From Octopus vulgaris (lineage: Eukaryota): 64,000 nt of DNA. The notes under the pieces were generated by a model. The model searched no databases. It was not told where the DNA came from and was given only the letters and a program-made list of their open reading frames with translations. The stretch spans positions 142,104,001-142,168,000 of the forward strand of contig OX597815.1 of assembly GCA_951406725.2 (NCBI GenBank). Direction: 5' to 3'. How positions within the stretch are numbered: the stretch's first letter is position 1; every line of letters begins with the position of its first letter. A program made the position numbers and the translations under genes. Positions 1,901-62,605 of the stretch are shown here, one piece after another.

Positions 1901-4900
1901 TATATATATATATTATCATAGGTTACTTTCCAATTTAACTCTCTCGATGTGATATGGATTTGTTAAACAATATTAATGGTTACTTTTCTTTATATTTAAT
2001 GTTACCGAGATATGTTTCCTAATAGCTTTACCACGAGGGAGGCTGTGTAGCGTATGTTGATGTGATGCATTTTGCGCAACAGTTTTTGGAAGAGATTTTA
2101 GGATTTCTATTTTGAAAACTGCATAATTTTATAAATATCATTGTTGGAAATGTCTGTTAACATGATGAAGATATTAAGTCAAATTATTTGCCAAATAGTT
2201 TTAAGAAATAGAAAGGAGGTGTGAAAGACTACGTTGCACAATTTAATTTTATAACAAAAAGATTTATGATAGTTTCTAAATAAGATTTTGAGGCACGTAA
2301 CTGCTGTTTAGAGAATGATAAGCTCGACAAAGTGATATATTTTTCAATAATTATATTTAATTTGCATTTAGAAACGTTTGTCTAACGTTTTGATTCATAA
2401 TCTTACGTTCGAAACATTATTAGAGTAGGAGTAGCCGGTGACACAATACACCATTTGGTTGCTATGCCTATTTCTACTTGAGGCTAGAAGTTGATCTTGG
2501 AGGATTAGAGCAATTAGAGTTACTGGAGTGAAGGTTTTTATGCCGAGAAGCATGCTTATTTTACTTAGTATTAATCAATATATATTTAACATTTACATTT
2601 GTAGATTTTTATAATTTTAAAAATCGTCTAATAGCACAACGCGCAATGTAATTTAACACGGTGTTCCAGCAGGGCCGCAATCAAATCACTGAAACAAGTA
2701 AAAGAATAAAATGATATAAGAATATACAAATATGATGCATTATATGCAAATGATTACAAAGTATGGCAGACGTCCAACCGGGAATAGATTCCTCGGTGGT
2801 ATATATAGCTAGTATATATATCTGTCATATATTCGTATGTGTTTGTGTTTTTGAGTGGGCGTGTAGAAACTATGGGCATACAACAACGAATTATATACAC
2901 TTATTAGTGTTTAGGTATCGGAAAATATATTGTTTCTGGATTTTATTCGTATTATTATGCCCAAGCAGGTGAAAGCGAAGTCCGTGATATACTACGAGTT
3001 CGTGTTTTTGTGTTTTATAGTAGTTCCTTTGTGTATACGTATTTGTGTATGTTAAGGTGGACGTCAATGTGTGTACATATGTGCGTGCGTGTGTGTGTGT
3101 ATATATATATACACACACCTAAATATATATATTGTTATAAATATTTATACACACACACACACACTCACACACACACATACACACATATATATATAAGCAT
3201 TATTATTTTAGTAGATGTGGATTTGTAGTTTTTATGGTAATATTCTGATAATATGCCTTTATTTATTAGATGCATTCTGGAACAATAGCCTCGTTAATAT
3301 ACGCGATCAAAGAGTGTTTGAACGTGCTTATCAATAGTCCACAACCTATTTACTGTTATATTGATTCAAAGCTACGGACTGTGAAGATATCATGAACACA
3401 ATACTTTTTGCAAATTCCAAAAGCAAAAGTATGTGATACCTATTGAACGGAATTTCGGGATACAAATATATCGTTTATAGTATTCTGTCCAAAATCTTTA
3501 GAAAATTCTAGCAAACCATTTCTGGATATGTGCATCTATCCATTAGCAAAGACTTTTCATAACGTGCATTTTCTGTATATTATATTTGTTTATTTATCGT
3601 TGTATTTCTAATACATTTTTTGGTTTATTATATAAAATCGAGTGTTAATTCAAACAGAATCGTTTAATATATTTTTATTTCTTCATAAGCTACACTTACT
3701 ATAAATAATTTAGAGTAAATATGTGTAATGTAGTGTCTCCATATTTTTGTTTTTGATTATGTTTTTTTTTTATCGAAACATACCGATTTATCTATTTCGG
3801 TTTCAACAATAAGACATTGAGTAGTGTTTCTACTTTAGTCTAAATCTCACTTTATAGTTGTTTTATTCCCGACATTAGATTGAAGTACAGAATTATTTTC
3901 AGTCTAATTTCTGCGTTAATGCATTTCCTGCATTACCTAATATAAGATACACACATTTCCATTTATTGGTTCTTCAGTTGTACGGAATATTACATAGCAT
4001 TGTTGTATTAAATTATATACTACATTTGGTTAACGCACTATTTTATAAAATTTTTTTCATAATGAACATACCTCTCTTGAACATGACTTTGCTGTTGAGT
4101 ATGGTTTTTAATTGCAATTAGTATTTTCACTAACCAATTTTTCGATACATTTTTGGAAGAATACTACACTAAATATTTTCTAATATATCATTCCGTTTTT
4201 AATTCATATAAAACATATTATTCCCGTACTGTGTTACTGACCGTAAAGATGATCACATATACACACGAACTAGTTTGGGAGAAATGTATATAAGTGAATA
4301 CACATTTAGATGGAGTCTGTATATATAGTGTATCTATATATATAAATGTATGGACAGTACATATTTTATATGTAACACAATAATATCTGTGATATTAATA
4401 AAAAACGTCGATGAGGTGCAATTTGAGCACTGTGCAGAAACATTATCCCTGATTATTATTGGGTTTATATTCAAATTCATTGATATTTTCGTTGTCTCTA
4501 AGTTACAGTATGTTTCTCATTTCATGAACTCAAGTTTTTCTTCCATTGTCTACATTATAAGATATAACCGAAGAGTATCCATTGATGGCTAAAACAAGTT
4601 CAAGTTATAAAAGCTAGAGAATACATTGGAAACAGTTATCTTTATATGTCTTTATCATCATGTGCACCTTGTGCCCAAACACAATCCTGCATACGCATGC
4701 ACACACAGAGGCACACACACATACAAACACACACACACACACTCACACATAATGGTATGATCGGAGAGACAAAAATAAAATCACTCCTAATACCTCTAAA
4801 GAGGTTAATGGCCACGCCAGTAGCATTGTTAGGTAAGGAATACAAGAGTAACTAGAACGAAACAAATAGAGGCAGTACCCTATCAAACTGCTGAAAAGAA

Positions 4901-21406: not shown

Positions 21407-23483
21407 TTTTTGCTAGAATGGAACATATATATTAATTCAATCTATACTCTTACAAACGCTACACCTTTAAAAAGAAATGGACTTGTTTGATTGGCCCTTT
21501 AGAAAAAACGGTCAATCTTCGAGCGATAAACAAAAAGGTCAAAAATATATGTATATATATATAAAAACTTATAAAAATTATAAAATCCGAGGAAAATACC
21601 GAGGAAAAAACCTGTTGCCGTTAATGAAGACAGTACAAATTAATGCATAGAAATTAAACCTGTTATAAATACTGCAATACATATTTATATTAAAATCCAC
21701 ATATATATCAACATACACAAAAGGATGCGCGTAAACGCCATACATACACATACAGACGTATGAATATGAATCTAAATTATACACATAAAAGCATGTGTAC
21801 ATATATTCACGCAAACCGTCTCGCACGCAAGCTAAAATTCATCTATGTAGCAATTCTCATATACTGAGCAAGGAGGGGGAACGAAAGAAAGGAAAGAGAG
21901 AAAAAGAACGGAGGAGGGTGGGGGAAAAAACTTGTAGCTATGTTATTTGGCATCTATAGAGGCCTGTATACATACACAAGTTTGAATTGATACATATACA
22001 TACCGTCGTGTATATGTGTGCTTAAGCACAAGCATACTTTCACTCACACATACATAGATACGCATGCTTACAAATACATATGCTTTGCTATACACAAACT
22101 TATATAAACATTCTAAATTTGACAACATTGCTTTTTTTTATAAAAAAACATTGCTTTTAAAAAATGGGTGCATTAATAAAAATATATACGAAAGACCTAT
22201 AAAATAAAATATAACATCCTATTTTGGGTCATTTATAAATAATCAAGGTAATATAAATAATCAAGGTAATCTTATGCAATACAATAACATGAAAACAAAG
22301 TTTGTAGGTTTTCCTAATATATATGTAGAAACAATAAGACTTTTGCTATAGGTCCGTTGTAGCTCTCAAGAGTCAAAATCAAAATCAAAAAATCAAAATA
22401 CAAAATATATACTCTATCCATATGGTATATTTATATTCGACATATAATGTCGAATATAAATATACCATATGGATAGAGTATATATTTTGTATTTTGATTT
22501 TTTGATTTTGATTTTGACTCTTGAGAGCTACAACGGACCTATAGCAAAGTCTTATTGTTTCTACATATATATTAGGAAAACCTACAAACTTTGTTTTCAT
22601 GTTATTGTATTGCATAAGATTACCTTGATTATTTATATTACCTTGATTATTTATAAATGACCCAAAATAGGATGTTATATTTTATTTTATAGGTCTTTCG
22701 TATATATTTTTATTAATGCACCCATTTTTAAAAGCAATGTTTTTTTATAAAAAAAAGCAATGTTGTCAAATTTAGAATGTTTATATAAGTTTGTGTATAG
22801 CAAAGCATATGTATTTGTAAGCATGCGTATCTGTGTATGTGTGAGTGAAAGTATGCTTGTGCTTAAGCACACATATACACGACGGTATGTATATGTATCA
22901 ATTCAAACTTGTGTATGTATACAGGCCTCTATAGATGCCAAATAACATAGCTACAAGTTTTTTCCCCCCACCCCTCCTCCGTTCTTTTTTCTCTCTTTCC
23001 TTTCTTTCGTTCCCCCTCCTTGCTCAGTATATGAGAATTGCTACATAGATGAATTTTAGCTTGCGTGCGAGACGGTTTGCGTGAATATATGTACACATGC
23101 TTTTATGTGTATAATTTAGATTCATATTCATACGTCTGTATGTGTATGTATGGCGTTTACGCGCATCCTTTTGTGTATGTTGATATATATGTGGATTTTA
23201 ATATAAATATGTATTGCAGTATTTATAACAGGTTTAATTTCTATGCATTAATTTGTACTGTCTTCATTAACGGCAACAGGTTTTTTCCTCGGTATTTTCC
23301 TCGGATTTTATAATTTTTATAAGTTTTTATATATATATACATATATTTTTGACCTTTTTGTTTATCGCTCGAAGATTGACCGTTTTTTCTAAAGGGCCAA
23401 TCAAACAAGTCCATTTCTTTTTAAAGGTGTAGCGTTTGTAAGAGTATAGATTGAATTAATATATATGTTCCATTCTAGCAAAA

Positions 23484-31984: not shown

Positions 31985-34750
31985 ACCTTTCTATGTTTCA
32001 TCGCAGCGTACATATTGAAAATAGGCAGCGAATTTACTTCACAGAAGATAACCTCGTACAGTAAGCAGCTGCCCCACCTAAGATCACTCTCACTGCCTTC
32101 TTTCACCTTTGCAAAGTCGACTTCTTCACAAATTCTATATTGTAGGCTGAAGTGCCACATTATTATATATGGGATCAGTCACCTACCCAGTGGTAACGAT
32201 GAAACCAAGACCGGTCTACGCAGTTGGATCCAGCCGTGTACAAAGGGTTCTCAGTTCACCCTTTAAAATCCGAATGCTTTCAGCTGTGGCTCTTACTTCA
32301 TGTCATTAAACGACCGACCTCCTTCGACGACTTTCTCACAGTGGACGGCCACTAATGCGGCACTTTCAAAGATACCTGGTCTAAACGAGGTCATATCGAT
32401 ACAGATGATCTATAAGATAATGTACTCGAAAAGGCCTCTCTGTGTCGTTCACCGAACAAGCACCAACACCTTTTTCGTAATAATGCTCGTTTTTTGCAAT
32501 CTGACAGATGCACAATCACTTTGGAATAAATACAAAGACTCAATGTGCCATGGAATTTTGCAACAGACTCGCCAAATCACAGTTAGCGTTGACACTCCCA
32601 CTACCCTTGCCACTTACAACAGAGGGCTTCTTCTCCTGGAAAACTTAGTTATAGCAATTGGAGGACAACGATTGGACGCTTATTCGTTCAACTCTCCAGG
32701 CAAAAATTAAGACGCATGTCCCAATCACGTCATTCTCAGTCAAACATCCTACAACATCCATAAACTGAAACAGTACATTGCTGACAACGATTTCCTTCTG
32801 AATTTCGATTACACTCACGTATAGAATTTTGCCGTCGGAAACATATACTTACACAATGGCAGAATCATCTTAGACGCACTCGGTGGGATTGGAAGAACAT
32901 TCTTCCTGGATATTCTTCTTGCGAAATTGCGATATAATAGTAACCTTGCTGTTGACTCCTCAAGAAGAGTCTTGACTCTCATCGATGGCAGACGAACAGC
33001 ATACTCTATATTAAAGTTGTATTTTAATGTAGCACAACAAGAAACCCAAAGTACCACATAATGCATTCCTCGGACGAAGCAATAATTTTGAAAAAGTGCA
33101 AACTCATTGCTGGTGATGAAGCGACTTTGTACTATAAATATTTCCTATAACCACTTGACATCACAATGAGACACCGTTATTCGAGCAACAAAATCCTACG
33201 AGATGCGACTCTACTTCTTGCAGATTTTCAATAAACTCGGCCTATGTATTTCCCTGTCTACTATACCGAAAGGAACACCCACTGAGGAACTTAATGCCTG
33301 CTTTAAAAAGTTCCTCCTTTGGTCGCATGTGAAATCGAAACAACTTATCATCAACATGAGCTCACTCCTACAGACTAGTCAACCTACAACCTAGTTTTTA
33401 GAAATGCTCTTTCAAATCGACAATGGACAAATTAAGTCCACCGACAACAGATACGTTGACACAGCCGCCATTAGCCACACTGTCTGAAGCCCTGATAACT
33501 TATGTTCTGCTGTTTACTCAAATCTTACAACGGAATACATAAAATCTGATTGGCTTCGCGACAGTACTGTTCTTGCACCTACAAATGCATCTGTCACCAT
33601 TCTTAACAACAACTTAATCAGTCGGCTACCTTCCCAAGAACGTTGTTAGAGATAAGTTGACACCGTTATCGACCTCGGTCAGTTTACACACTTTCCAACA
33701 TAATTGCTCAACTCCCAAGATCCCCCCAGGACTCCATCCCCACGAACATCATTTAAACGTTGGTTGACCTGTCATCCTCCTAAGTAATTTAAACGCAGTC
33801 TCACTATGCAATGGAATTCGCCTTATGGTCAAACAAATGATGGATGACGTCAATGAAGCCCGAATTATAACGGGCCACGGCAAAAACGATACCGTTTTCA
33901 GTCCGAAAATACTGCTAAGTCCCAACAGACTGTTCCTACCCTATGCAGAGACTTCGGTTCCTTCTCAAATTCAGCTTCACCATGACAATTAATAAAGCAC
34001 ATGTTCACACTTTGAAAGTTGTCAGATTGGACCTTCGAACATCGTGCTTTTCACATGGACAGTTCGACGTCGGTTGTTCCAGAGTTGACCATCCATACAA
34101 CATACTCATCTATGCTCCTTGAAGGGAAAAACTAATATGCCGTCTACAAAGCCACTCTACGGTAGTTGTTCCTCTACTGCAATCTTCACATATACGCCAA
34201 ACAGTAGCTGTTATTAACCAGACTTCCTGCAAGCATTTCATTTCTACTTTGCCCCATTTCCCAGATTGCTTTTAACAGTACATTACCTTCAATGATCCTT
34301 CTTACTTCACGCTGTTCGCTCACAAGCATGTTCTGACATTTATTTTTGTATATATCATTATTTTATTTGTGTATTTGTTATAAATTTGTGTATTTGTTTG
34401 CTTTTCTTTATCATACATGACGTTTAAATAAAAAAAAATCTTCAATGCGGTTGTGTCAGGCATTACGAGAAAAATAGGTGCATGATACAAAACGCTTCAA
34501 GTAAGATATAGGATCCCTAATGCCTACTGAAATTTCGATCTCATTTCATAGACGTTTATTTATTACTAACTGCCAAATCTGTATTCAAAATATTTATTCA
34601 TTACTTACGTTACTTAATTCCATAACATAAAATGATAACGAAAATGGTAATTATAAATTTTACCCTTATCAGCTTGAAGCGATTTCTAACTGCGAGCTAA
34701 TTTAACTTAATAATAAATTACAACGCCCAAAGGACGGGTGCATCAGCTAT
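31985..34750 (+). mobile_element. Helitron remnant: degenerate RepHel PIF1-like helicase region plus 3' end
   Basis: VHIENRQRIYF; LLLHVIKRPTSFDDFLTVDG; LDALGGIGRTF (Walker A); AGDEA (Walker B); LAPTN; LCNGIRL; FTMTINKAH; FSHGQFDVGCSRV. Subterminal hairpin GCCC..GGGT at 34725-34739 is followed by CTAT (CTAG-like) at 34747-34750. Confidence 0.92.
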
Positions 34751-35237: not shown

Positions 35238-36572
35238 TATGTGCGTGTGCGTTTGTGCGTTTTATAGTAACACAAGTTTATATGCGTTACTTGATTTATA
35301 CCACACGGCAGTATAGGTCAAAAAGAAGTATTTGGATATATAACAGTGTTGCAAATCATATCAATCGTACGCAATATCATCAATTTAGAGTTAATTGTAC
35401 CTCAGCTGTCTCAATTGTTTGATTCTATTAATTTTGGGGGTCTTCTTCACAAACACATAATTAGTCAGTAATAGTCAGTAATTAGTCAGTAATACAGTAA
35501 TAGTACGTTATTGAGTAGGATATAAACATTGTTTATAAATATTCAACTTCGTATGTTTATTTCTGCTAATGTTATTTTCTTTATTTTTTGGGGGTTTTTT
35601 TGTGGGTGTAGATTTTTACTTTCACAATATCCTTTGTAGAATATCCTTTTCACTAAATAATTTCAGTAGACTTGTGCAGCGTATATCTAACAACATTTTA
35701 GATGAAAGAAAATTGACAGCCTTATATTTATATATTATTTGCAGTTAATGTGAGGATTTAGTTTGTGTATGTTTGTGTACATGTGTATGCTTAATTTCCT
35801 TTGTCAGTATTGAATTGTAGTTAAAGGAGAGTGAAAAGCTAATTTGAATTAAAGATAAATGTAAAATCTAATTACAGTATTAATCACGTATATTAACAAT
35901 TCTAATGTTTAAATCAGTACTGAGAAAAATACGTCAGTTTTCATTTCTATTCGGAAAAGATCTGAAAGAAATGACTGACAAATTTCGAATGGAACAAAGT
36001 GACATTAGATTTCTGATATAGCGACACAGACCTCTGTAAAGCAAACTCTTGTTAGCATCATAAAAAATAAGCTTACATCGCGAATAAATGACTGAATTTT
36101 GGTGCTATCGACCGATACTAGAATCACAATGACTCCTTCATGCAAGGGACTACGGTTTTGTATCTACGATTTCTACTTCGTTTTTTTTATGTCACACGAG
36201 AACACAAACAGCAACTGTAATTTACAATGCTCTCTATGTCAGTAAATTTGTGTCTGCCGTAAGTCTACAGGCCATAAAGCGAGCTCCGTAACATAGCGGG
36301 AAGACTTTTCTATGGCTATTGAACCAACTGAGAATTCTTCACCCGATCATCCTCATCAATTTAGAAAATGTGATAGTTCACGTTGAATAATTTACTGTAG
36401 GATATACTATGTCTCATACCAATCAGGGTATCGTAACGCTTTAAATGATCTTCGCGATAAGTGTGCTAAATCTCTCTGGACAACAGTTCTATATGTAAGA
36501 GATGACGAATTATGTACACTATTTACATTATTTACACTTCACGGATATTTGTCCTCATCTTGATTGTTGTTT

Positions 36573-36616
36573 ACACAAGTTTTCGGCTGATATACTCTCC
36601 AGCCATCATCAGGTGT
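36573..36616 (-). ncRNA. Hammerhead motif (family C), inverted copy
   Basis: Minus strand ACAC-CTGATGA-T-GGCTG..CAGCC-GAAA-AC-TT-GTGT. Confidence 0.65.
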
Positions 36617-37245
36617 CTTGGAGAAATTTTTAACCTGGGTTCTCATTCCTAAGGTAATTTTCGATGTTATTGTTATTGTTGTTGTTGATGTTGTTGTTAT
36701 TCAGGTCACTGCCTGGAATCGAACTCGGAAACGTATGAAGAAAAGGGAGGATGAAGTCAATAAACTGTCTACAGTTTGTCTATCGTATGTGAAAGACCTC
36801 TCCGGAAAGTTACAAAAGATATGCGGCCTATGTAACATCAGGACAGCATTCAAGATTAATACAATACTTCGCAAATATCTCCTTCTGGTAAAACCAACAA
36901 TAGAAGAGAATATGACCAGAAAACTGCGTGTACTCCATCCTATGAAGCTGTGGTAGGTTATACAAAGGCGAAACATGCCGCTCCCTCAAAATAAGGATAG
37001 AGGAACATCGCAAAGCTGTGACACAAGGAGATATTGATAAATCGAGTATAGCTGATCGTGTCTATTATTTTAACGTCACCTCACATGAAAATACGAAAAC
37101 TAAAAGTAGCAGCATATATGCTAGGACATAGCAACATCCTAAGCACATCGAGTGCAGATATGAATAGCATATGGGAACCGGTATTAAGGAAGGGTAGGAA
37201 AATATTAGATTTATGATCCCTAAAATTCACTCCATAATTGCCCAT

Positions 37246-37320
37246 GGGCATATGGCGTAGTGGTTTAGAGCGGGGGCTACTAACTCCAAGTTTCCGAGTG
37301 CTATTTCAGGCAGTGACCTG
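37246..37320 (+). promoter_or_regulatory. tRNA-like segment (Pol III A/B boxes) inside the PLE 3' pLTR
   Basis: A box in GGGCATATGGCGTAGTGGTTTAGAGC. The B box is degenerate here but intact in the inverted copy (GGAATCGAACTC at ~36715 reads GAGTTCGATTCC on the minus strand). Confidence 0.65.
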
Positions 37321-37322
37321 AA

Positions 37323-37356
<34 letters not shown>

Positions 37357-37405
37357 ATCAAAAAATACCTTAGGAATGTGAAACCAAGTTCGAAATTTCC
37401 CCAAG

Positions 37406-37449
37406 ACACCTGATGAAGGCTGGAGAGTATATCAGCGGAAATGTTGTGT
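37406..37449 (+). ncRNA. Hammerhead motif (family C)
   Basis: ACAC-CTGATGA-A-GGCTG..CAGCG-GAAA-TG-TT-GTGT. Confidence 0.68.
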
Positions 37450-37769
37450 TAACAACAAACAGGAGAGGACATGTAAATAATGTACTGTCTGGACAAGTAT
37501 ATAACGACATATAAATACGACAACCTTCATGCCAGAGGTGAACTAGCAACACTTAAGAATAAAATTTCCATCTCATAACCATATGCAACATGTGTGTATA
37601 TTTCTGAATATGTTCGGGAACTGGCATGCAATTGTTATATTCGTTTCTTCTTTGATATACTCGTGTACAATTGAAATATTCGTTTCTTCTTTGATCTGAC
37701 TGCTTCACTCATGATACAAATGGAAAATGCTTCTCGAAGCACACTACACGGTTAAAGAATTATTAACTG

Positions 37770-38099: not shown

Positions 38100-38712
38100 T
38101 CTTTTCTATTCTAGGCACAAGGCCCGAGATTTTCGGGGAGGGGGCCAGTCAATTAGATGAATCCCAGTACGCAACATGTACTTAATTTATCGACCTCGAA
38201 AGGATGAAAGGCAAAGTCAACCTCGGTGGAATTTTAACTGAGAACGTAAAGACAGACGAAATACCGATAAGCATTTCGCCCGGCGTGCTAACGTTTCTTA
38301 TTTCTTTACTACCCACAAGGGGCTACACACAGAGGGCACAAGCAAGGACAGACAAACAGATTAAGTCGATTATATCGACTCCAGTGCGTAACTGGTACTT
38401 ATTTAATCGACCCCGATAGGATGAATGGCGAAGTCGACCTCGGTGGAATTTTAACTCAGAACGTAGCTGCAGACGAAATAACTATTTCTTTACTACCTAC
38501 AAGGGGCTAAACACACCGAGAACAAACAAGGACAAACGGATTAAGTCGATTATATCGACCCCAGTGCGTAACTGGTACTTATTTAATCGACCCCGAAAGG
38601 ATGAAAGGCAAAGTCGACCTCGGCGGGATTTGAACTCAGAACGTAACAGCAGACGAAACACCGCTAAGCATTTCACCCAGCATGCTAACGTTTCTGCCAG
38701 CTTGCCGCCTTT
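38100..38712 (-). mobile_element. Tandem/nested cluster of three SINE family 2 units (Nin/Deu-like domain)
   Basis: Three copies of TCGACC(C/T)CGA(A/T)AGGATGAA(A/T)GGC(A/G)AAGTC; tRNA-like head AAGCTGGCAGAAACGTTAGCA on the minus strand at ~38700. Confidence 0.85.
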
Positions 38713-47539: not shown

Positions 47540-47945
47540 TTACTCTTTATACTCTTTTACTTGTTTCAGTCATTTGACTGCGGCCATGCTGGAGCACCGC
47601 CTTTAGTCGAGCAAGTCGACCCCAGGACTTATTCTTTGTAAGCCCAGTACTTATTCTATCGGTCTCTTTTGCCGAACCGCTAAGTGACGGGGACGTAAAC
47701 ACACCAGCATCGGTTGTCAAGCAATGCTAGGGCACAAACACACACACACAAACACATATACACACACATATATATATATACATATATACGACAGGCTTCT
47801 TTCAGTTTCCGTCTACCAAATCCACTCACAAGGCATTGGTCGGCCCGGGGCTATAGCAGAAGACACTTGCCCAAGATGCCACGTAGTGGGACTGAACCCA
47901 GAACCATGTGGTTAGTTAGCAACCTACTTACCACCCAGCCACTCC
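47540..47945 (-). mobile_element. Full-length SINE family 1
   Basis: Colinear and highly similar to 25705-26105. Confidence 0.87.
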
Positions 47946-50159: not shown

Positions 50160-50350
50160 GGCAGCGAGCTGGCAGAACCGTTAGCACGCCGGGCGAAATT
50201 CTTTGCGGTATTTCGTCTGCCATTACGTTCTGAGTTCAAATTCTGCTGAGTTCGACTTTGCAATTCATCCTTTCAGGGTTGATAAATTAAGTACACAGTG
50301 CGTAACGGGGTCGATCTTATTCACTGGCCCCTTTCTCAAAAATGTCGTGC
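50160..50350 (+). mobile_element. SINE family 2 (other degraded copies at 15410-15545, 39375-39550, 51745-51875, 54065-54250, 56885-57085)
   Basis: GGCAGCGAGCTGGCAGAACCGTTAGCACG head, GAGTTCAAAT B box, TTCATCCTTTCAGGGTTGATAAA domain. Confidence 0.8.
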
Positions 50351-51085
50351 CATGCATATACATTCTCTGAACACCAAGATTTCTATAATACCTAACAATC
50401 TTCAAAATGATATTTAGCAGCAACACTTAAACATTTGAGTTCAATTCCTGCTAAAATCTTATTTGTGTTAATATTCCAGGTTCAACAGGAAAATATATAT
50501 TTCATGCATTAAAATCGATTTCATCAATTTTGTGCTCCCAACCATTAGAGATATTCTGCCAGAGTGATAAATCAATATTAGAAATAAGCAATATAATTGT
50601 TGTTGTAAAAATATATATGGAGAGAACTGTTTTTATTTCAAACATCAACATAGATATAAGAATAGAGTAGAAAAAAATATAGATTGTATTATGCCATTTG
50701 GAAACGTGTTAGTGCAAAACTCCCAGAGCAGCATATATACTTTGTTTTATCCTTTTTTTGTTTATGAAATTTGTGTCTTTTTCACGTTACATATGTTCGA
50801 GAATATTGGTGAAAATAAAAATCGAATCAAGTGAAATAGTATATGCTGCAAAAATGAAACAAAAACTATTATTAAAATTTAGTTTGGAGATATATGTCTA
50901 TATTTACTAAATTTACGTTGTTAGATAAAAGTTAAGATGTGCTTTACCGTATGTATTCTAATGGATTCTTTGTTATATGAAAGAGAATATAAACGTTCGT
51001 ATGGTGTACATCATATGAAAGTTAAGCCGAAAATTAAAAAAGCGCTTCGTCTCTCTATCTTCCTCTTTCTGTTTCTCTCCATCAC

Positions 51086-61471: not shown

Positions 61472-62605
61472 TTGTCTATCAATATTTGCTTCTTCTGCGT
61501 GCATATATTTCTGAGAGTACAGTGCAGAGCAATATCTAAAGTGATATTACTTTGTCGAACAATCTTCATCAGTTGCAAATTTCCTGCTCACCGTTGCATT
61601 GAATCATCTTACACGAAACGTATCAGAGTTTATCGGAATATATGCATATTGGCGAAAACAAGCGAAGTAATCTTTTTTCATTATTTCTGCATTATCTCAG
61701 AATATTTACATATTTAACTACAAGTATATTTATACCAATATCTACGACGAAAACTAATCTTCCTCTCAGGGAACTTTACATTACAATAGAGATAACATTT
61801 CAATAATCTTCAGAAATGCTTGTCTGGTTAATGCAGATGTTCACACAAATAAATGGTAAACAAAACGAATACTTAATAGTATAAATCTATATGGAACACA
61901 TACCGGCTCTTCCGTGTATTTACATATACCTCAGCACAAAAACATATGCACAAATACAGCTAGCCATATTGAAAGACAATCCTGCAAGTATTAAAGCAAG
62001 CACACACATATAAACATGAAGACATACATGAAGATACACACACAAACAACCAAATGGTTATATAATCAGTGACAGACAGATGTGTACGTGTGTATGTGTC
62101 ACTGAGTGTTATGATCCTGTACTCAAATCTAAGAAGACCTAAACATAGCGAAATGTATAGTTGTATAAATATAATATTTTTTATCATGGTATATGCAAAA
62201 AAACACGAATCGCCATGTTATGGAATTAAAGATACATCTTTGGTTAAATATTACTCCCAAACAAACACACATTCAAGCACACACATAGTGACACATGTGC
62301 ATATGTATGTTTATACTTATATATGCATATTCATGATATACACCAGCGCAAATACACATGCATGTACACACGTCGTGCGTGTGTGTGTTTGTGTTTGTCC
62401 CCCGACATGGCTTCTCAACCGATGCTGGTGTGTTTAACTCCCCGTAACTTAGCGGTTCGGCAAAGGAGGCTGATAGAATAAGTACAAGGCTTACAAAGAA
62501 TAAGTCCTAGGGTCGATTTGCTCGACTACAGATTTTGCTCTAGCATGGCCACAGTCAAATAAATGACTGGATCAAGTAAAAGAAAAGAATAAAAGAATAT
62601 ATATA

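Follow-up and report, generated by a model that had tools for sequence, protein, structure and literature searches.

A tRNA-derived head at the start of the terminal repeat in a Penelope/Poseidon family of Octopus vulgaris

Introduction

The closest coding relatives of the element described here are PAc of Anolis carolinensis and Penelope of Drosophila virilis. According to the available parts of the reports on them, both carry a single ORF in which a reverse transcriptase (RT) is followed by a C-terminal GIY-YIG-type domain, and both have their promoter in the terminal repeat (pLTR), which also contains the start of the ORF and a minimal hammerhead; they further share two classes of 3′ end (the 'tail') and inverted, 5′-truncated arms (PMC11167929, PMC2377424). 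In the account given of PAc, the pLTR body doubles as the beginning of the ORF, the RT initiates internally at two sites in the early part of that ORF, the RNA used as template is uncut and cleavage by the ribozyme is dispensable (PMC11167929). More widely among PLEs, an inverted upstream arm is described as the usual pattern, a zinc-finger linker as the mark of the Neptune/Nematis elements and an N-terminal endonuclease (EN) as that of Naiad/Chlamys (PMC8557442, in the parts available). The minimal type I hammerhead of pLTRs is defined by an extra base after A9, a G10.1-C11.1 pair and a palindromic 15.2-16.2 (PMC4209133).

Autonomous retrotransposons are held to need Pol II, with Pol III serving only short non-coding passengers, and Kojima (2024) argues, in the portion of that article available, that the processivity of Pol III rules out its use by autonomous elements (PMC10886601). 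From the same source, the TRIMp3 elements (Cassandra, Helenus and Ajax) carry a small-RNA-derived Pol III promoter inside their terminal repeat and are non-autonomous LTR elements of 0.3-1.3 kb whose autonomous partners are expected to use Pol II (PMC10886601). Excerpts on Sm-alpha/Sj-alpha of schistosomes describe a tRNA-derived, Pol III-type head combined with a type I hammerhead in tens of thousands of copies, Sm-alpha being non-coding, often tandem and ribozyme-processed (PMC6765202, PMC2770079). Animal non-LTR retrozymes, as far as the excerpts available go, are non-coding, hammerhead-bearing and pLTR-related, and are thought to be moved by PLEs (PMC7229834; bioRxiv 10.64898/2026.07.22.740005); the accessible text of the preprint contains no occurrence of tRNA, Pol III or promoter. 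We found no PLE with a tRNA-derived promoter described in the full-text literature, and the present family may sit in Repbase, Dfam or SINEBase under a Penelope or SINE label.

The element studied here lies in a 64,000-nt stretch of the Octopus vulgaris genome (GCA_951406725.2, contig OX597815.1, 142,104,001 to 142,168,000, forward strand; 'the window' below), part of a 2.8-Gb assembly of 227 contigs. An initial annotation, made from the letters alone, had suggested that a PLE family captured a tRNA or SINE head upstream of a hammerhead, which would give a Pol III-transcribed, ribozyme-trimmed short RNA and amount either to a SINE mobilised by the PLE or to an internal promoter for the element itself.

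Results

The insertion in the window

The locus is a single insertion of 1,001 nt (36484-37484) flanked by a 12-nt target-site duplication with 11/12 matches (36472-36483 on the left and 37485-37496 on the right, both on the plus strand); the duplication moves the start of the element from 36523, where it had been placed initially, to 36484. The insertion is a minus-strand pLTR arm joined to a plus-strand arm that holds the last 480 nt of a Penelope/Poseidon ORF and the pLTR. With family positions numbered so that the head begins at 0 (window 37246), the minus-strand arm (36484-36730) corresponds to +46 to +272 and the plus-strand arm (36734-37484) to -552 to about +246.

The minus-strand arm is an inverted, 5′-truncated pLTR with a B box, triplet spacer, ORF start, hammerhead and long tail and without an A box. 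Along it lie an intact B box (36715-36726), the ORF start codon (36644-36646) and a minimal hammerhead, recognised by sequence, in which helix III positions are decayed (36572-36617). The plus-strand arm opens with the 3′ end of the ORF (36734-37216; family -552 to -30), which covers the end of the RT thumb and a GIY-YIG-type endonuclease and is frameshifted, with an internal deletion. A 29-nt spacer from ORF stop to head (37217-37245) leads to the tRNA-derived head (37246-37324; family 0 to +78), the hot spot of 5′ ends in the family, whose A box (37253-37263) agrees with the family and whose B box (37296-37307) is degenerate in this copy, with several mismatches. There follow a triplet-repeat spacer, likely the 5′ leader (about 37325-37354), which is (ATT)n here and (AAT)n in the family and is highly variable in length across copies; the ORF start codon repeated in the 3′ pLTR (37376-37378) and, in this copy, then a stop; a minimal type I hammerhead within the first codons of the ORF (37405-37450) with a predicted cut after 37445; and an N-terminal ORF segment that runs, with a short internal deletion, to the short class of 3′ end at about +246 (37451-37484).

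Much of what had been read from the letters is borne out by this map: the PLE remnant with its GIY-YIG-type end, by translation and family comparison; the A/B-box segment, with its boxes at tRNA spacing; the AT-rich triplet spacer; and the inverted module on the 5′ side, which is 80% alike in the two arms. No arm keeps a full pair of intact boxes: a good A box goes with a decayed B box in the plus arm, and the minus arm has a good B box and no A box. The hammerheads of both arms are altered next to the core. On its sequence, this copy is dead. Target duplications were clear here and in one other copy (L108), and not in 6 other simple copies checked.

A repeat search of the whole window was dominated by microsatellites, and four other structures were seen. 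Another abundant short repeat lies at 38118-38298, 38340-38710 and 50174-50354, with an inverted pair 81% alike and a partly tandem stretch at 38280-38710; we take it to resemble an octopus SINE. The stretch 33000-34150 is decayed and coding-like and resembles, by eye, the end of a Helitron/PIF1 helicase. Positions 21408-23483 form a near-perfect 2-kb fold-back, two of its arms (498 and 244 nt) being 100% complementary and a third (211 nt) 95%; it is either a young inverted-repeat element or an assembly artefact. A 191-nt inverted pair, 85% alike (47566-47756 and 62376-62566), probably represents two copies of a dispersed repeat.

ORF structure and clade

Our working majority reference is a 2,640-nt unit whose single frame of 830 codons opens at +118, before the hammerhead; its order is head, (AAT)n, ATG, 830-codon RT/endonuclease ORF, 29 nt and head again. 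The ORF has an RVT_1 match with an E-value of 6e-05, under the curated cut-off, and its C-terminal endonuclease motif was recognised by eye, local Pfam returning no GIY-YIG match in the ORF. Homologues bear PF00078 and PF26215, with PF01541 in 2 of 20, and a PDB search returned group II intron-like RTs alone. An RT followed by a C-terminal GIY-YIG-type endonuclease in a single ORF is the arrangement of Penelope/Poseidon elements, and the translations show no zinc-finger linker between RT and EN and no N-terminal EN. The pLTRs arising from partial tandems, the inverted 5′-truncated arm (present upstream in 55 of 90 hammerhead-anchored copies) and the optional tail are those of a PLE. By these domain features, and not by a tree, the family is assigned to the EN+ PLEs of the Penelope/Poseidon clade.

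On the reference sequence, the 'body' and hammerhead of the short module are the first codons of the 830-aa ORF, and the N-terminal peptide pattern that the hammerhead encodes recurs in P0003, an unrelated homologue. Parts of the end repeat lie in direct orientation upstream of the ORF N-terminus in 6 of 30 N-terminus-anchored loci, with head, body and tail at one (L080) and body and/or tail at 5 more. No single copy spanning the head start, the whole ORF and the second repeat was seen; L071 begins in the spacer, and L080 has the head and no endonuclease match in the DNA examined.

The head and its copies

Compared with 30 host tRNA genes of few isotypes, the family head scored 55 against tRNA-Arg(TCG), the best only within this set, where the best of 200 shuffles reached 36.5. 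It is colinear with host tRNAs, position 0 aligning with tRNA position 1. The acceptor and T stems are broken and the A and B boxes persist in the sequence, as in SINE heads, and the placing of such a head at the 5′ end is that of a SINE2 element. Its fold was no better than those of shuffles, and neither ARAGORN (80% threshold) nor Rfam called a tRNA on the window or on a good copy. On these alignments, the head is derived from a tRNA and its cloverleaf has decayed.

The head belongs to the family and not to this locus. In ORF-anchored searches it lies downstream of the ORF at 27 of 30 loci, the window locus included, which upholds the initial proposal that the family captured a tRNA-type head. 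Anchoring on the head itself gave the triplet spacer next in 30/30 loci, the ORF directly upstream in 2/30 and the PLE body within 800 nt in 28/30; with the last result, the possibility that an independent SINE had merely landed here falls away. When a same-genome PLE control family was sought with a distant protein, the best 30 loci of that search all belonged to this single family. The ORF-head junction is not private to the octopus assembly, since it is bridged by contigs from runs of organisms B and F; contigs of four runs showed family presence only. In 80 metagenome loci, many of them too short, no B-box match marking a tRNA-headed relative was found up to 900 nt past the match.

First-look searches gave 2,941 candidates for the module, 2,841 for the ORF remnant and 349 for the N-terminal ORF piece. 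Exact matches to a 44-nt word from the hammerhead came to 925 and those to a 42-nt word from the head to 455; reversed controls gave 0. Random sampling of sixty 10-kb stretches at round coordinates found 10 insertions in 599,900 nt, one of them at a stretch edge, which corresponds to about 47,000 genome-wide (95% 22,000-86,000); ORF 3′ sequence was present in 0/10. A figure of about 10,000 arms from exact-match fractions was set aside as biased low.

The short copies are, as judged from their majority bases, solo pLTRs rather than a SINE lineage of their own. In a comparison that left out 41 unclassified repeats, the majority base of 73 solo repeats agreed with that of 36 ORF-linked ones at every listed site. 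Lower divergence among solo copies (4.9% vs 7.0%) was rejected as evidence, those copies having been picked by exact match. The distinct PLE-mobilised SINE lineage suggested initially would call for a solo-specific majority variant and, as in SINE2, a non-autonomous family distinct from its autonomous partner, and neither was found. A separate SINE family with a tRNA head and hammerhead tail, ribozyme-trimmed, of its own lineage and inserted beside PLE remnants, would agree with most insertions being short and lacking the ORF. It is at odds with a head-to-ORF junction fixed in 27/30 copies, a body that is the ORF's own start, the uniform majority bases of solo repeats and 3′ ends that do not fall at the cut site. 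That reading, like a purely local insertion, is already largely refuted and has a very small residual probability.

Family copies are 5-10% diverged from the reference, and the family looks extinct or nearly so by this measure. Variants at +63, +156 and +225, one of which is a variable position of the hammerhead core, co-segregate (P below 1e-4), pointing to a possible minor subfamily. At C11:56.26 Mb, two adjacent inverted blocks that carry the element (L084 and L088) are 99% identical, a recent inverted duplication.

Ends of copies and the hammerhead

Ends were mapped in the first 90 of the 925 hammerhead-anchored loci. The 5′ end lay at -20 to +8 in 29 copies (first pass 26), inside the head in 15 (first pass 14) and in the body in 15 (first pass 16); 5 copies reached into the ORF (first pass 4), and the remaining 26 (first pass 30), which stop in the triplet spacer or have no head within reach, went unplaced. 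Thus 29 of the 34 copies that reach +8 stop between -20 and +8, a stopping rate per base 13-fold that inside the head (P about 3e-20), and the 5′ ends of 24 of 30 head-anchored copies fall at -18 to +5. This pile-up strongly indicates that the head marks the 5′ end of the RNA, and it fits the idea of an internal promoter for the element. No such meaning attaches to the inverted arm of the window, which had been said to start exactly at the B box: it stops 4 nt before that box, at +46, an ordinary truncation that can be put down to chance because 15/90 sampled copies end at scattered sites inside the head.

A 5-bp palindrome with a 2-nt loop (-7 to +4) straddles the ORF-head junction. It could blur or attract ends in fold-back copies, and it looks like a fossil fold-back at the 5′ end of the head, suggesting how the head may have joined the ORF. 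The palindrome is also one ground for regarding the head as a passive relic, with the pile-up produced by RNase P-like cutting or by an RT stop or fold-back hot spot; the ends are centred on tRNA position 1, and many copies fold back exactly at the head start. However, RNase P needs acceptor and T stems, which are both broken here, six copies without an inverted arm (L108, L155, L164, L165, L170 and L175) also start at the head, a 5-bp stem with a 2-nt loop is unlikely to act as an 85% block, and the scarcity of TTTT described below would go unexplained. We regard a passive head as unlikely.

All 3′ ends of hammerhead-anchored copies fall at +208 to +282, with clusters at about +237-246 and +264-282. 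In the head-anchored set (n = 30), which is free of hammerhead-anchor bias, 28 copies with a body end at +240 to +286. Copy 3′ ends therefore lie about 20-95 nt past the hammerhead cut site (+187), where none of the 90 hammerhead-anchored copies end; that anchor needed reach to about +191, which excluded copies ending exactly at the cut and left a peak just past it detectable. Because the 3′ ends lie beyond the cut in both the 90 and the 28 copies, the copied RNA was not ribozyme-trimmed, and the trimmed RNA of ~200 nt proposed as the mobile unit has to be given up. The two clusters match the two internal RT starts of PAc, which contradicts the trimmed-RNA idea as well. In raw RNA reads of another organism, loose ends occur at the same two sites.

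The family 44-mer has the extra base after A9, the G10.1-C11.1 pair and the palindromic 15.2-16.2, which makes it a predicted minimal type I hammerhead. For the plus-strand copy in the window, the initial annotation of a hammerhead after the spacer holds at the level of the motif, a minimal one at 37405-37450, and of stems I and II, which appear in the fold. It gains nothing from the stability of that fold (z -0.65, not beyond chance alone) or from Rfam, which returned no hammerhead match on the window or on a good copy, and the core region carries two changes.

Evidence on transcription

The sense strand of the 2,640-nt unit has no TTTT run; the opposite strand has 31. A synonymous shuffle expects a mean of 2.9 runs (P 0.028) and four-fold-site frequency resampling a mean of 5.3 (P 0.0014), and Markov models of orders 0, 1 and 2, applied to a first reference 18 nt shorter, gave P 0.01, 0.057 and 0.24. 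Single copies of the family have 42 runs in 104,719 nt (0.40/kb; 66 segments, some counting the same place twice), where a neutral-decay simulation from zero gives 0.63/kb. Related PLE ORF segments from other animals have 262 runs in 54,272 nt (4.8/kb; n = 45, chosen from 80 loci by a minimum of 900 matched nt; these are single copies from few hosts and not independent). Other transposon ORFs of the octopus genome have 30 runs in 12,399 nt (2.4/kb; n = 13, identified by Pfam out of 50 scanned). TTTT is missing from 2/45 of the relatives (L218 and L221) and from 1/13 of the same-genome ORFs (L404), and T-poor controls have about 1 run per kb. G4 runs are also absent from the unit and are rare in all controls. 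The TTTT gap is one observation in one family; it would fit Pol III read-through of the whole coding unit, and we treat it as supportive, not decisive.

Promoter patterns differ between the family and its relatives. Of 12 relatives examined, three carry a TATA-like box that precedes the hammerhead by 39-40 nt, in two cases along with an initiator-like word; a B box was found in none. On these metagenome contigs the boxes lie at L211:2280-2360, L217:4440-4510 and L235:1650-1720, and a similar one, missed by the pattern, was seen by eye at L243 about 3000-3060. From its position and pattern, the TATA-like box in the pLTR of these relatives is likely a Pol II core promoter. The pLTR of the tRNA-headed family has no match to the simple TATA and initiator patterns scanned. 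Those patterns would miss a TATA-less promoter. The available account of the pLTR of Drosophila Penelope describes an internal one (PMC2377424), which would likewise place 5′ ends at a single site; on that model, the head region would serve as a Pol II promoter inside the element, its likeness to a tRNA incidental to present function. Yet the A and B boxes are retained at the right spacing from the 5′ end, and the scarcity of TTTT fits Pol III and not Pol II; we give this arrangement little credence, even less than a passive head.

Three raw, unstranded RNA runs of another organism covered both strands alike. Between 80 and 86% of the mapped reads run into unrelated sequence, from copies embedded in other transcripts, and no common start or end of many molecules was found in these runs.

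Taken from the genomic record, it is likely that Pol III made the head-initiated RNA, and the odds that it read the whole ORF are about even. The head could instead be a working Pol III promoter for short RNAs only, which are copied into solo repeats, with the coding RNA coming from Pol II or from host-gene read-through. A promoter so restricted would explain the 5′ pile-up and the excess of short copies (no ORF 3′ sequence among the random insertions) equally well, avoids an uncapped mRNA of 2.9 kb and matches Sm-alpha, which the excerpts cited describe as tRNA-derived, hammerhead-bearing and apparently transcribed by Pol III (PMC6765202, PMC2770079). It gives no reason to expect an ORF free of TTTT; without a terminator in the unit, Pol III starting in the 5′ repeat cannot stop before the 3′ end; and the repeat offers no TATA or initiator match from which Pol II might start. 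We consider it possible and somewhat doubtful, with a better claim than any of the other alternatives above.

Discussion

The best explanation of these observations, to which we assign a probability of roughly 0.6, combines an RNA initiated at the head, internal priming and read-through of the coding unit by Pol III. The promoter would lie about 250 nt upstream of the internal RT start sites. Any RNA begun at the head and primed close to its 5′ end would then give a SINE-like solo repeat of ~250-280 nt, and a long RNA primed in its downstream repeat would give ORF-bearing copies like that in the window. The sense strand would have lost TTTT because Pol III had to read through. How the uncapped RNA might be translated is a matter for guesswork: the AU-rich (AAT)n leader is one candidate, and a hammerhead-cut, re-ligated circle restoring head, ATG and ORF would be another. 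A fuller statement of the case is that an autonomous, coding Penelope exchanged a Pol II promoter for a tRNA gene it had captured, rid its unit of TTTT and was transcribed over its whole length by Pol III. The uncapped RNA would have served as mRNA and, primed internally near its 5′ end, shed tens of thousands of solo repeats, so that the element would resemble a LINE and a SINE together and offer a model for the origin of Sm-alpha-type elements; in that form we would put it at a toss-up.

If true, a protein-coding element driven by a tRNA promoter and free of terminators would overturn the division of labour between Pol II and Pol III, and would raise the question of how an uncapped Pol III RNA of 2.9 kb gets translated. 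The family offers a route from PLEs to tRNA-plus-hammerhead elements such as Sm-alpha. For genome annotation, tens of thousands of 'SINE' or 'unknown' entries in the octopus genome may be Penelope end repeats. Its importance at the level of the host is historical, as the family looks extinct or nearly so.

Set against known systems, the feature is, on present sequence comparisons, a real one: a new variant of a Poseidon-type PLE in which a tRNA-derived head opens the terminal repeat. With PAc and Penelope the octopus family shares every trait listed in the Introduction, from the RT with its C-terminal GIY-YIG-type domain and a promoter in the pLTR to the ORF start and minimal hammerhead there, the two 3′ end classes and the inverted arms; as in PAc, the body of the pLTR is the ORF start. 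It is unlike its Penelope/Poseidon relatives, so far as the available descriptions of them reach, in that a tRNA-derived A/B-box head stands where they show TATA-like boxes or a TATA-less internal promoter, and further in a sense strand without TTTT and in solo repeats that begin at the head and vastly outnumber the longer copies. The A/B-box head, the decayed cloverleaf and copies that start at the head recall SINE2, but here the head sits within an autonomous element, there is no poly(A) or LINE-derived tail, and no separate lineage was found. Retrozymes, in the excerpts at hand, form tandem arrays that make circular RNA, whereas the octopus copies are dispersed singles or inverted pairs; tandem units cut to monomers, as in retrozymes and Sm-alpha, are not the arrangement of the 90 loci, where inverted pairs dominate over head-to-tail arrays. 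Like Sm-alpha/Sj-alpha, the family joins a tRNA-derived Pol III-type head to a type I hammerhead in tens of thousands of copies; in contrast to Sm-alpha, its module is a terminal repeat together with the first codons of an autonomous ORF, and it is not cut at the ribozyme site. Like TRIMp3, it would place a Pol III promoter derived from a small RNA inside a terminal repeat, but where TRIMp3 elements have LTRs with PBS/PPT and are non-coding, the octopus unit is coding and has PLE structure. The nearest precedents are therefore Sm-alpha and TRIMp3, both of them non-coding.
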